Shown here in pieces: positions 54,486-58,819 of a DNA stretch of 64,000 bases. Every line of letters begins with the position of its first letter. Position 1 is the first letter of the stretch. The notes beneath the pieces are model-generated. The model was given only the letters and a program-made list of their open reading frames with translations. It was not told where the DNA came from and searched no databases. The translations under genes and the position numbers were made by a program. The stretch is from Candidatus Micrarchaeota archaeon. GTDB lineage: Archaea > Micrarchaeota > Micrarchaeia > Anstonellales > Anstonellaceae. The stretch spans positions 4,015 through 68,014 of the forward strand of contig CAZOMB010000002.1 in assembly GCA_964581105.1 (NCBI GenBank). Reading direction: 5' to 3'.

Positions 54486-54755
54486 ATGTTTGTGACACTA
54501 AAGGTTTCGAAAATATATGGGATGGACATATACACTGATGGTGGTAGGTTCCTTGGTAGGGTCCAGGAGATTTTGCTTGACCTTGAAAAGGGGGAAGTTA
54601 TCCGCCTTACTATGGAGCCGTTGAACTCTGTTTCAAAGGATGAGGCAAAAAGGATTTTGCGCGACAAGAGTGTGCTTTACAAGAGTGTAAAATCTGTTGA
54701 AGATGTTGTGGTTGTAACAAAAGGCGCAGTCTCTGCGTCAGGTCTTGAGTCTTGA
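54486..54755 (+). CDS. PRC-barrel domain protein (CdpB-like), second copy
   Basis: SKIYGMDIYTDGGRFLGRVQEILLD, YKSVKSVEDVVVV. Confidence 0.85.
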   Translation: MFVTLKVSKIYGMDIYTDGGRFLGRVQEILLDLEKGEVIRLTMEPLNSVSKDEAKRILRDKSVLYKSVKSVEDVVVVTKGAVSASGLES

Positions 54756-54760
54756 GGGCT

Positions 54761-54945
54761 GGCCCCGCAATTCCGGTAATCTCCTTAAATTTTTTTGTTT
54801 TTTACCTCTAATATTGTTTGTTGTGTTAGGGTTTTGTGTTGTCTTTTGTAACCATGGTTACATTACATAATAATAAATAACTAATAACTAAATATAGCAA
54901 TAAACAAATAAAAAACACCAACCAAACACCGGAACTCTGGGGGCC
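54761..54945. other. Symmetric non-coding element; candidate replication origin or terminus
   Basis: Inverted outer boxes GGCCCCGCAATTCCGGT (54761-54777) and ACCGGAACTCTGGGGGCC (54928-54945); T/G-rich left arm and A/C-rich right arm; perfect palindrome TGTAACCATGGTTACA (54847-54862) at the centre; strand codon bias flips here. Confidence 0.6.
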
Positions 54946-54960
54946 TGGCACAAAGAAAAA

Positions 54961-55035
54961 TAGCGGGAAGTGGATTTGAACCACTGATCTCTGGGTTATG
55001 AGCCCAGCGGGCACTCCAGACTACCCTATCCCGCT
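54961..55035 (-). tRNA. Initiator tRNA-Met(CAT)
   Basis: AGCGGGATAGGGTAGTCTGGAGTGCCCG CTGGG CTCATAA CCCAG...GGTTCAAATCC...CCCGCTA; A1-U72 and three G-C pairs in the anticodon stem. Confidence 0.95.
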
Positions 55036-55069
55036 TCGTGCTGTTAAGAGAAGGTGTAAATAAAAACCC

Positions 55070-55720: not shown

Positions 55721-55763
55721 CTAAAATCACAAACAATTTCTGACCTTCCCCTTATATATACCT

Positions 55764-56294
55764 TCAATGGTTTTTACCACGAACGACAACCTTACCGCAC
55801 TTATCTGGCACGATTTTAATCCTGCCCCCAAACTCCAGTCCCAATTCCCTACCTTTGAAAACCCTGTCCAAAAACATTGCAAGCGCAGCAACCTCCGAAT
55901 GTGGTTGATTTGTGACAGCAAGATTGCAATCCACCATTTTGTAAAGTTCAAAAGGAACCTTTCCAGAGCCAACAACCACAACCCAATTCCCTTTGTCCAT
56001 TTCTTTTGTTTTTTTTGAAAAATCCTCACCATACATTGTGAGATGCACAACTTTCCAACCTTGTTTTTTTCTTGACTTTAAGAACCTTTTCCAATTTTTC
56101 TCATACTTTACTTTAAAATCACCACCCCACTGCCTGCCCACACTCTCAACAGTCTTTACAATAGGCAGATCCTTTTCACCACACAGTACCCCCTCTATTG
56201 CGCCAAGCGCCCGGGCCGCCAAAAATACATGGGTTGTAATTCTCTGGTCCCTTATTTTTCTGTGCCCCAACCTGAGCACGCATATTTTTACCAT
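55764..56294 (-). CDS. trm56: tRNA (cytidine(56)-2'-O)-methyltransferase
   Basis: VLRLGHR..RDQRITTHV.L.ARALGA, HLTMYG, VVVGSGKVP, NQPHSEVAALA.FLDR. Confidence 0.95.
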   Translation of the reverse strand: MVKICVLRLGHRKIRDQRITTHVFLAARALGAIEGVLCGEKDLPIVKTVESVGRQWGGDFKVKYEKNWKRFLKSRKKQGWKVVHLTMYGEDFSKKTKEMDKGNWVVVVGSGKVPFELYKMVDCNLAVTNQPHSEVAALAMFLDRVFKGRELGLEFGGRIKIVPDKCGKVVVRGKNH

Positions 56295-56345
56295 GCCAAA
56301 CCCACACAGCCGCATTTTAAATCCTTAATCTCAAAAAAGCCAAAT

Positions 56346-56735
56346 ATGAAGTCAATACTGGTGGATACAAACTTTTTGCTAGTCCCCTATGAGTGTAAAA
56401 TCGACATTGTAGCTGAGCTTTTGAGAGTTATACACTCTCCCTTTGCCCTTCTGGTAGCTTCTGGCACAATAGATGAATTAAAATCAATTGCAGGCAGGAC
56501 AGGTAAAAGGGCAGCAGCCGCGCGGTTTTTCCTCCAGAACATTGAAAAATACAAAAAGCAAATAAATATAAAAACAATAAAAAGCAGCGGCAAGGTGGAT
56601 ATGTGGATTATTAAATATGCACAGGAAAAAAACCTCTGTGTTGCAACAAATGACATTCCTTTGAGGAGAAAACTCCTGGCTTTGGGTGTGCCAGTAATAG
56701 CAGTGAAAGGAAAGTCAAAATTAGATTTTGTATAG
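56346..56735 (+). CDS. PIN-domain protein, Fcf1/Utp24-like
   Basis: ILVDTNFLL, TIDELK, VDMWII, VATNDIPLRRK. Confidence 0.88.
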   Translation: MKSILVDTNFLLVPYECKIDIVAELLRVIHSPFALLVASGTIDELKSIAGRTGKRAAAARFFLQNIEKYKKQINIKTIKSSGKVDMWIIKYAQEKNLCVATNDIPLRRKLLALGVPVIAVKGKSKLDFV

Positions 56736-56758
56736 GTTTTGGAAATTGAGGTGATTTT

Positions 56759-58819
56759 TTGGAAACATCAATTCTTCAGCTGGCTCTTTATGTGCCCCTG
56801 GTCCTAGGGATTTTAGGGGCATTATATGCAATCAAGCTTGCAAGTGGTGTATTTGAGTATGCCCAGGGCACTAAAAAAATGCAGAAAATCTCACGCGCAA
56901 TAATGTCAGGTGCAGGTGCATATCTGAAAAGGCAATTCATAACAGTGGCAGTATTTACCATAATCCTCACAATTCCAATCTATTATGTTCTTGGCACCAT
57001 TGTTGCAGCTGCCTTTCTTGTCGGGGCAATTTCCTCAGGCCTTGTAGGGTATTTTGGCATGTATGTTGCAGTGCGCTCAAATGCCAGGGCAGCCCAGGCA
57101 TCTCTCACAAGCATGCGAAAGGCGCTTAGCCTGTTGTTTTCAGCAGGCATGGTAAACGGAGCATTGGTTTCTGGCATTGGCCTGTTAGGGGTTTCAACCG
57201 TATTTGTTGGTGCTTACCTGGCTCTGGGCCAAGGGGAAGCAGCTCTTTCACAGGCAGGCAGGGCATTGATAGGGTTTGGCTTTGGCGCAAACGTGCTTGC
57301 CCTTTTCATGAGGGTTGGTGGAGGAATTTACACAAAGGCAGCAGATGTTGGTGCAGATTTGGTCGGAAAAGTGGAAAAGGGAATACCAGAGGACGACCCA
57401 AGAAACCCTGCAACAATAGCTGACAATGTTGGCGACAATGTTGGGGACTGCGCAGGAATGGGCGCAGATGTTTTTGAGTCATACACAGTGACAATAATCG
57501 CAGCAATGGTGCTTGGGGCAGTTGCGTTTGGGCTTATGGGCGCACTGTTTCCCTTGTTTGTAGCAGGCGGTGCAATGCTGCTTGGCTTTGCAGCAAGCAA
57601 AAAGGTCAAGTTAAAGCGCGAAAGCGAGTATCCTTTTGCTGCAATGAAAAGGGGCTTTACAGTATCAACAGTTCTCCAAGCAGTTTTCTTTTTTGCCCTC
57701 TCTTACTATGTACTTAACAGCATTGCAGCATTTCTTGCTCTTTTGACTGGCCTTGTTGCAACTCACCTGATAATGGCATTCACAGATTACTACACCTCAA
57801 CAAAAAGAAAACCAGTGCTTGAAATCGCAACAGCTGCAAAATCAGGGGCAGGAACAAACCTCATAGCAGGGTTAGGGGTTGGGATGGAATCAGCAGTTGC
57901 AGGAATACTGGTTGTTGCAGCAAGCATTTTCTTAGGATTTAATGGCCTTTGGCTTGAATCATTTGGCATATTTGGCTTAGGCTACTTTGGAATAGCTCTT
58001 GTTGGGCTTGGAATGCTCTCAACAACAGCAATGATAATGGCAATGGACACATTTGGCCCTATTGCAGACAATGCAGGGGGAATCGCACAAATGTCTGGCC
58101 TTGCCCGCAAAGGAAAGAAAAGGCTTGACAGGCTTGATGCTGTTGGCAATACAACAAAGGCAGTGACAAAAGGCTTTGCAATAAGCTCAGCAGCAATAGC
58201 AGCAGTTGCACTGTTTTCAACTTATTTTGAAAGCACAGGGCTTTCCTCAATAAACGTGGCAATGCCAACAGTATTTATCGGCCTTTTGATAGGTGGCGCA
58301 GTGCCATTCATATTCTCTTCTTTGACAATGAAGGCAGTTGGCAGGGCAGCAAACCTTGTGGTGAATGAAGTCAGAAGGCAATTCCGCGACCCACGCATAA
58401 TGAAAGGAACACGCGACCCAGATTATGCAAAATGCGTTGACATATCAACAAAAGCAGCAATAAGCTCACTTGTGCTTCCAGGCGCAATAGTTGTTCTTGT
58501 GCCAATAATACTGGGCTATACGCTTGGTTTAGAGGCTCTGGGCGGCTTTTTGGCAGGAGCAATACTCGTTTCCCAGCTAATGGCAATATTCATGTCAAAT
58601 GCAGGTGGAGCATGGGACAATGCCAAAAAGTACATTGAGGACGGCAAATTCGGGGGCAAGGGAAGCGAGGCACACAAGGCAGCAGTAGTTGGAGACACAG
58701 TAGGAGACCCATTCAAAGACACGTCTGGGCCTGCCTTAAACCCAATGATAAAAGTGCTTAACATTGTTTCCCTGCTGGTAGCAGCAGTAATAGCAGGCAC
58801 GCAGATAGGTGCAATTTAG
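56759..58819 (+). CDS. hppA: Membrane-bound H+-translocating pyrophosphatase, K+-independent signature
   Basis: GGGIYTKAADVGADLVGKVE.GIPEDDPRNP, DNVGDNVGDCAG, DAVGNTTKA, GDTVGDPFKDTSGP; TTG start after GAGGTGA. Confidence 0.95.
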   Translation: METSILQLALYVPLVLGILGALYAIKLASGVFEYAQGTKKMQKISRAIMSGAGAYLKRQFITVAVFTIILTIPIYYVLGTIVAAAFLVGAISSGLVGYFGMYVAVRSNARAAQASLTSMRKALSLLFSAGMVNGALVSGIGLLGVSTVFVGAYLALGQGEAALSQAGRALIGFGFGANVLALFMRVGGGIYTKAADVGADLVGKVEKGIPEDDPRNPATIADNVGDNVGDCAGMGADVFESYTVTIIAAMVLGAVAFGLMGALFPLFVAGGAMLLGFAASKKVKLKRESEYPFAAMKRGFTVSTVLQAVFFFALSYYVLNSIAAFLALLTGLVATHLIMAFTDYYTSTKRKPVLEIATAAKSGAGTNLIAGLGVGMESAVAGILVVAASIFLGFNGLWLESFGIFGLGYFGIALVGLGMLSTTAMIMAMDTFGPIADNAGGIAQMSGLARKGKKRLDRLDAVGNTTKAVTKGFAISSAAIAAVALFSTYFESTGLSSINVAMPTVFIGLLIGGAVPFIFSSLTMKAVGRAANLVVNEVRRQFRDPRIMKGTRDPDYAKCVDISTKAAISSLVLPGAIVVLVPIILGYTLGLEALGGFLAGAILVSQLMAIFMSNAGGAWDNAKKYIEDGKFGGKGSEAHKAAVVGDTVGDPFKDTSGPALNPMIKVLNIVSLLVAAVIAGTQIGAI

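Follow-up and report, generated by a model that had tools for sequence, protein, structure and literature searches.

A conserved origin-like element lies at a strand-composition switch of probably inverted polarity in Micrarchaeota

Does the point at which the strand-specific codon bias of an archaeal chromosome reverses mark the start or the end of replication? This question is raised by a stretch of 64,000 nucleotides from an Anstonellaceae-like Candidatus Micrarchaeota genome (hereafter the window; G000:C2:4015-68014, given as genome, contig and positions). The original prediction for this stretch, made from its letters, claimed a flip in strand codon bias at ~54.85 kb. It reasoned that, if the G+T-rich strand is leading as usual, the flip looks like a terminus, which clashes with gene orientations that point away from the site as at an origin, and it offered two ways out: an inverted mutational skew in this lineage, or weak co-orientation of genes with replication. 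This reasoning was sound: under the bacterial rule such a polarity, a maximum of cumulative GC skew, stands for a terminus, at odds with the origin-like features of the site. As shown below, the flip is real, strong and conserved. It is located in a 205-bp spacer (54756-54960) between a PRC-barrel gene and the minus-strand genes for tRNA-Met and TFE, and this spacer is probably the chromosomal replication origin (oriC), with an A+C-rich leading strand, the inverse of the bacterial polarity.

To measure the flip we used the whole assembly to which the window belongs (1.09 Mb in 37 contigs, 92% complete, 0.08% contaminated). Genes were called with our own codon-model open reading frame (ORF) picker, which yielded 1016 genes covering 88.6% of the assembly and skipped two plus-strand ORFs right of the switch. 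We defined D as the mean third-position keto skew, (G+T-A-C)/N, of plus-strand genes minus that of minus-strand genes, a measure that needs no baseline and is insensitive to the number of genes per strand. Change points were located by a weighted search, and their significance was determined by permutation. Third codon positions on the plus strand were G+T-rich left of ~54.85 kb and A+C-rich right of it, with D = +0.219 on the left (t 8.8; 22 plus-strand and 43 minus-strand genes) and D = -0.259 on the right up to the contig end (t -5.8; 8 plus-strand and 9 minus-strand genes). The top change point among 82 genes fell between a gene end at 54755 and a gene start at 55070 (permutation p <= 0.0005), and the plain cumulative GC skew was maximal at 54-55 kb. 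The claimed flip was therefore borne out. Left of the spacer, the GC skew at third positions (GC3 skew) was ~+0.2 in plus-strand genes and ~0 in minus-strand genes, while the corresponding AT3 skew was ~0 and ~+0.22, respectively; right of the spacer the values of the two strands were exchanged. The codons that the prediction had picked out by eye follow the same pattern. The GCA fraction was 0.49 in left plus-strand, 0.66 in left minus-strand, 0.70 in right plus-strand and 0.52 in right minus-strand genes, and the fractions in the same order were 0.35, 0.53, 0.53 and 0.42 for ATA, 0.35, 0.60, 0.67 and 0.44 for ACA, and 0.51, 0.32, 0.30 and 0.47 for ATT. The genome-wide GC3/AT3 comparison that had been proposed as a check showed the switch to be significant and the sole change point of its kind, with no second significant orientation-independent switch in the 37 contigs. 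On the small contigs C23 and C25 a few genes split off with their sign unchanged.

We then turned to the spacer itself. From left to right it contains a C-string box CCCCGCAATTCCGGTAAT, a T/G-rich arm, the palindrome TGTAACCATGGTTACA, an A/C-rich arm and an inverted box ACCGGAACTCTGGGGG (Table 1). Both boxes match the ORB1 and ORB2 oligos of Pyrococcus furiosus (ORB, origin recognition box; oligos reverse-complemented) in the GTGGAA core and the G-string CTCTGGGGG, and they resemble the euryarchaeal ORB consensus GTTCCAGTGGAAAC-AAA----GGGGG quoted by Norais et al. as well as the haloarchaeal ORB TAACAGCGGAAACAGTGGGG. The spacer thus has inverted repeats of ORB type that match the published half-core and G-string, in a compact variant form. 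A putative A/T-rich unwinding element lies between them, with 62% T in the 60 nt left of the palindrome and 62% A in the 60 nt right of it.

The element is conserved among relatives, and so is its gene neighbourhood. A palindrome fitting TGTAACYATRGTTACA was present in all ten spacers first compared, which came from three families and included G024 and G029 from other families, and it was found with one mismatch in two relatives compared later (G013 and G027). Boxes of the pattern ATTA[GC][CT]GGAA[GC]T-N2-3-GGGGG, recognised in the relatives by this pattern or by eye, form an inverted pair 42-81 nt from the centre in most of the ten genomes; in G024 an insertion places the left box ~610 nt from the palindrome. 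Seven of nine relatives are clearly T-rich left of the centre. On the right the excess of A is less pronounced, in part because the 60-nt interval used there includes the right box.

The skew switch recurs together with the element. The best skew change point lay in the element's own spacer on G000:C2, G004:C1, G002:C11, G010:C10, G013:C11 and G029:C5, and polarity was identical in every genome with a flip. Two relatives from other families of the order, G024 and G027, retain the element (G027 with its one palindrome mismatch) and showed no significant skew, which means that skew strength is lineage-specific. On G004:C1 the sign does not change for 375 kb past the site, and the genome measures ~0.9 Mb; with bidirectional replication, the site is therefore one of the chromosome's only two poles. 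The flip might instead be the breakpoint of a recent large inversion to which the element is unrelated; an inversion that carried the cdc6 block across the site does indeed separate G000 from G004. However, at least seven genomes from two families have a switch of the same polarity at this conserved element, and the reciprocal breakpoint with an opposite switch that such an inversion predicts was found neither in the G000 contigs nor on G004:C1, G002:C11 or G010:C3. We therefore rejected the inversion breakpoint, the probability of which we regard as negligible.

The strand skew is strongest beside the element, and no sharp opposite switch was seen in any contig examined. Contig G010:C3 (249 kb), which by synteny continues from the far end of G004:C1, should span the antipode, and here D was -0.005 over 230 genes with no change point (p 0.70). 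The sharp start at one pole and the skew-free region at the opposite pole suggest a fixed origin with dispersed termination. Contigs C3, C4, C5 and C6 of G000 (~240 kb) had zero strand-dependent synonymous skew, with a per-gene spread of 0.074 compared with within-class spreads of 0.082-0.087 on the skewed contigs.

Is the asymmetry a product of replication, or of the way genes are laid out? A 2023 preprint proposed that archaeal GC skews in general arise from biased gene orientation (10.1101/2023.11.15.567178), and the flip could likewise follow from the orientation of genes or from codon choice linked to expression, with no replication-linked mutational bias involved. The modest size of the intergenic signal, a keto skew of +0.028 with the same polarity as in genes (n = 53,130), would suit this explanation; being only about one third of the synonymous-site effect, it also weighs against the origin reading favoured below. 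Yet the synonymous composition of plus-strand genes and that of minus-strand genes each change at the site, which makes the measure independent of gene numbers per strand. The flip also remains where orientation is 50:50 (G010, G029). The composition of 4-fold degenerate sites was symmetric for coding on the G+T-rich strand (A.316, C.182, G.182, T.320) and strongly skewed for coding on the A+C-rich strand (A.400, C.196, G.142, T.262), which splits into a coding-strand term and a replication-strand term of about equal size, each ~0.1 in keto skew. The shift was seen in most amino-acid families checked, and the sign agreed in intergenic DNA between convergent or divergent genes (n = 27,743). With the genes of the two strands flipping separately and 4-fold and intergenic sites in agreement, the asymmetry is most likely mutational or replicative and not an artefact of gene orientation. 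The preprint's proposal does not explain the switch here, and an account without replication-linked bias is very unlikely.

A replication-linked switch can still be read in two directions. The composition switch and its sign are observed; that the site is an origin, with a C- and A-rich leading strand, we infer. The alternative is a fixed replication terminus of bacterial or Pyrococcus polarity, with a G+T-rich leading strand, in which the element would act as a fork barrier or dimer-resolution site and initiation would take place elsewhere, possibly in dispersed fashion. Its polarity would match that of a bacterial terminus, and skew by itself cannot separate a fixed start with dispersed ends from a fixed end with dispersed starts. 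The anatomy of the element speaks for the origin, however. The boxes share the GTGGAA core and G-string of ORBs and are inverted around an A/T-rich stretch, and the palindrome differs from dif, which has 28 nt in two 11-bp inverted arms around a 6-nt spacer (PMC4640148). A terminus of the Xer/dif type was rejected on these grounds: the palindrome has 16 bp, its flanks are not conserved as 11-bp arms, and the only tyrosine recombinase gene lies on another contig (C30).

The location of the initiator gene bears on the same choice. The assembly contains one Orc1/Cdc6 gene (PF09079, 66.9 bits; TIGR02928, 359.5 bits against a cut-off of 181.3). Six genomes from two families (G000, G002, G004, G010, G011 and G024) each have their single orc1/cdc6 gene at a distance of 28-49 kb from the element, on one side or the other, as expected after inversions across the site. 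If the site were a terminus, orc1/cdc6 would have had to remain within 50 kb of it in all six. In G000 the orc1/cdc6 block (window positions 1-31230, G000:C2:2540-35244) lies left of the element; in G004 (G004:C1:98-135 kb), G002 and G010 it lies right of it and is inverted. This arrangement suggests that an inversion across the element moved the block while its distance and outward orientation were kept. The assembly has one family-B DNA polymerase (PolB) gene, ~21 kb to the right of the element and slightly beyond the window (G000:C2:79542-81914), and the gene for the DP2 subunit of PolD is on C24, so that both polymerases are encoded.

Gene orientation had been put forward as an argument for an origin, and here the outcome was divided. 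The hand counts of the original prediction (46 minus-strand versus 28 plus-strand genes on the left, 5 versus 7 on the right) became 41 versus 22 on the left and 4 versus 3 on the right in the window, or 10 versus 8 when the right side was followed to the contig end. Across G000 the bias does hold, with 333 genes on the A+C-rich strand versus 216 on the other (61%), and co-directional genes number 118 of 160 in that portion of G010:C3 which was allotted to the left replichore. The L3-to-SecY ribosomal operon is on the A+C-rich strand, as is the 23S rRNA gene of G000, which in G004 and G010 points away from the site. At a terminus, replication would meet head-on the main operon for ribosomal proteins, the 23S rRNA gene and 74% of the genes in the left part of G010:C3. 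On G004:C1, and near the site in four other relatives, orientation was close to neutral, which makes the argument weaker than it had appeared; genes are weakly co-oriented with replication, and it is chiefly the anatomy of the element and its linkage to orc1/cdc6 that favour an origin. Both ways out of the paradox accordingly found support: an inverted mutational skew, in that the flip sits on a conserved element of the ORB-unwinding element-ORB type with orc1/cdc6 within 28-49 kb, and weak co-orientation, at 61% genome-wide in G000 and ~50:50 in relatives.

Several observations weigh against an origin of inverted polarity; the neutral orientation in G004, the directions of the 16S rRNA gene and of most detected tRNA genes, and the distance to orc1/cdc6 would also fit a terminus. 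The genes of G004:C1 are split 188 to 187, and four other relatives are at ~50:50 near the site. The 16S rRNA gene (G000:C6, minus strand) is by synteny directed towards the site, so that the check on rRNA and ribosomal-protein direction came out split, with the L3-to-SecY operon and 23S in favour of an origin and 16S opposed. Of the tRNA genes detected by ARAGORN on G004:C1, 7 point towards the site and 4 away from it, although the totals (5 in G000 and 11 on G004:C1) are too few to decide. Unlike most mapped archaeal origins, the element is linked to its cognate orc1/cdc6 gene without being directly beside it. Some mapped archaeal origins lack an adjacent orc1/cdc6 too, for example Sulfolobus oriC3 beside whiP (PMC4010727). 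The boxes are a compact ORB variant in which the first half of the mini-ORB dyad is absent and the distance from core to G-string is ~5-6 nt shorter. The homologues of the skew-free contigs C3-C6 are mid-replichore and skewed in G004. The DPANN Diapherotrite Forterrea is reported to have ordinary skew, with cdc6 at the predicted origin (PMC5905446), so that the DPANN do not all share one sign of skew. Finally, the assignment of polarity itself depends on anatomy and linkage. Coverage values in SPAdes contig titles could be compared in a single related metagenome-assembled genome, where they were 1.307x near the putative origin (cdc6) and 1.342x far from it (dnaK), too little to be informative.

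Weighing these points, we consider that the site is most likely an origin rather than a terminus. A terminus of bacterial polarity appears unlikely; to our knowledge, neither a fork-trap system nor a fixed, sequence-specific site of fork convergence is known in archaea. Its most specific form, in which the element would be a programmed, sequence-specific fork-convergence site, that is, a fixed archaeal terminus with Orc1-type boxes, G+T-rich leading strands, genes mostly head-on or neutral and initiation dispersed elsewhere, seems quite improbable to us.

If the element is an origin, the two inverted Orc1-type boxes would enclose a readily melting stretch with a T-rich and an A-rich side and the palindrome at its centre. 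Forks would leave the element in both directions, and its firing would determine which sign the skew takes. At synonymous sites, the strand that has the sequence of the nascent leading strand would gain A+C while its complement, the leading-strand template, would gain G+T. This asymmetry, inverted relative to bacteria and Pyrococcus, would give cumulative GC skew a maximum at the origin rather than a minimum. Deamination-type changes (C>T, A>G) preferentially fixed on the leading-strand template could produce such a mutational asymmetry, or alternatively the two strand polymerases may differ in their error spectra. In both arms, the T-rich strand would be the one that a 3'-to-5' MCM helicase encircles as it moves outward.

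Inverted polarity has precedents in other lineages. In haloarchaea, GC skew is inverted and the leading strand is C-rich (PMC1868953; PMC2841640). As at the putative origin in the window, oriC1 of Haloferax volcanii, Halobacterium NRC-1, Natronomonas and Haloquadratum shows the polarity of a bacterial terminus at an ORB-flanked origin (PMC1868953, PMC2841640), and haloarchaeal ORBs also have G-strings and are inverted around an A/T-rich unwinding element. Unlike the putative origin described here, with its initiator gene 28-49 kb away, oriC1 lies directly beside orc1/cdc6 and has been mapped experimentally. A further difference is that the A/T component of the skew is here as strong as the G/C component. 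The effect here is also seen at synonymous sites, independently of gene orientation, and in a lineage of Micrarchaeota (DPANN) with 44% GC. An A+C-rich leading strand is also known from the yeasts Saccharomyces cerevisiae, Kluyveromyces lactis and Candida albicans (Marsolier-Kergoat 2012, PMC3459929). Yeasts share a replication machinery of eukaryotic type with the genomes studied here, but have many stochastic origins and small skews, in contrast to the one sharp switch and the replichores of several hundred kb found here.

In structure, the element also resembles the oriC of Pyrococcus and other Thermococcales, where ORB1, a duplex unwinding element and ORB2 lie beside cdc6 (Matsunaga et al. 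2007, PMC1904270). Here as there, a GTGGAA core is followed by CTCTGGGGG, the boxes are inverted around an unwinding element, and one initiator gene goes with one origin, putative in our case. In contrast, P. abyssi, as plotted by Norais et al. (2007, PMC1868953), has bacterial skew polarity and cdc6 adjacent to its origin, and a conserved 16-bp central palindrome has not been described for the Pyrococcus/Thermococcales origin. We found no paper describing skew or origins in Micrarchaeota. The site is most probably a Micrarchaeota chromosomal origin with an inverted skew of the haloarchaeal or yeast type and weak co-orientation of genes.

Such an origin would add Micrarchaeota, within the DPANN, to haloarchaea and yeasts as lineages with inverted polarity. 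It would also be a clean archaeal case of replication-linked mutational strand bias that is independent of gene orientation, which runs against the proposal that orientation alone is responsible. Tools that place the origin at the minimum of cumulative GC skew would choose the wrong pole here, and growth-rate estimates that use such calls would be affected. The conserved element may serve as a sequence marker for the origin in this uncultured group.

Table 1. Features of the window and contigs of related genomes that bear on the skew switch. Coordinates are window positions.
Feature	Coordinates	Strand	Remarks
Left replichore segment	1..54755		Plus-strand third positions G+T-rich; extends to contig start
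Orc1/Cdc6 initiator gene	19756..21006	-	Only one in assembly; 34 kb left of switch, transcribed away from switch
PRC-barrel gene	54450..54755	+	Conserved left-hand neighbour; last left-type gene, GC3 skew +0.43
Left ORB-like box	54763..54781	-	ATTACCGGAATTGCGGGG read outward on minus strand; G-string distal to centre; part of inverted repeat
T/G-rich arm, putative unwinding element	54786..54846		60 nt left of palindrome 80% G+T, 62% T
Central perfect palindrome TGTAACCATGGTTACA	54847..54862		16 bp; fits TGTAACYATRGTTACA
A/C-rich arm	54863..54927		60 nt right of palindrome 23% G+T, 62% A
Right ORB-like box ACCGGAACTCTGGGGGCC	54928..54946	+	G-string distal to centre; inverted-repeat partner
tRNA-Met (CAT)	54961..55035	-	Conserved right-hand neighbour of element; synteny
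Right replichore segment	54961..64000		Plus-strand third positions A+C-rich; extends to contig end
TFE-alpha gene	55070..55720	-	First gene right of switch
G004:C1			442 kb, 393 genes; record JAWAKW010000001.1, element at ~67.2 kb of contig; best change point in element's spacer
G002:C11			Best change point in element's spacer
G010:C10			Best change point in spacer; D +0.140 / -0.167
G013:C11			Best change point in element's spacer
G029:C5 (another family, same order)			Change point in spacer; D +0.445 / -0.538, t ~12
G011			Change point within 1.5 kb of element
G012			Consistent (probable eighth genome); only three genes past site, contig ends 3 kb beyond

Some further observations concern the same contigs and genes. 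Third-position skew on G029:C5 was very strong, reaching roughly double the G000 value. The 16S rRNA gene is located on a skew-free contig of its assembly (G000:C6). In the relatives G015, G009 and G005, the tRNA-Met gene beside the element aligns over its last 55 nt only and has an extra 40-60 nt after the first 20 nt, which suggests that the gene contains an intron in these three genomes.

A second perfect copy of TGTAACCATGGTTACA was found outside the window at G000:C5:52340, where it abuts the start codon of a conserved 77-aa ORF (G000:C5:52104-52337; feature span 52104-52355) beside a gene for a TrmB-family regulator. One ORB-like half-box without a C-string lies ~140 nt from this copy, with no inverted box partner, and C5 shows no skew. 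A second origin at this position is disfavoured by the lone half-box, the lack of a partner and of skew, and the G004 counterpart, which is degenerate and lies at the start of a small conserved gene; the palindrome on C5 looks like a gene-linked copy and not an origin. The 77-aa ORF had no Pfam, NCBIfam or significant PDB sequence match. Its G004 homologue is 74% identical, with the degenerate palindrome at the same place (G004:C1 ~268.4-268.63 kb), and its G024 homologue, which is 51% identical, lies within the origin spacer, ~100 nt from the origin palindrome (G024:C1 ~497.87-498.22 kb). The 77-aa protein may be a palindrome-binding protein linked to the origin.

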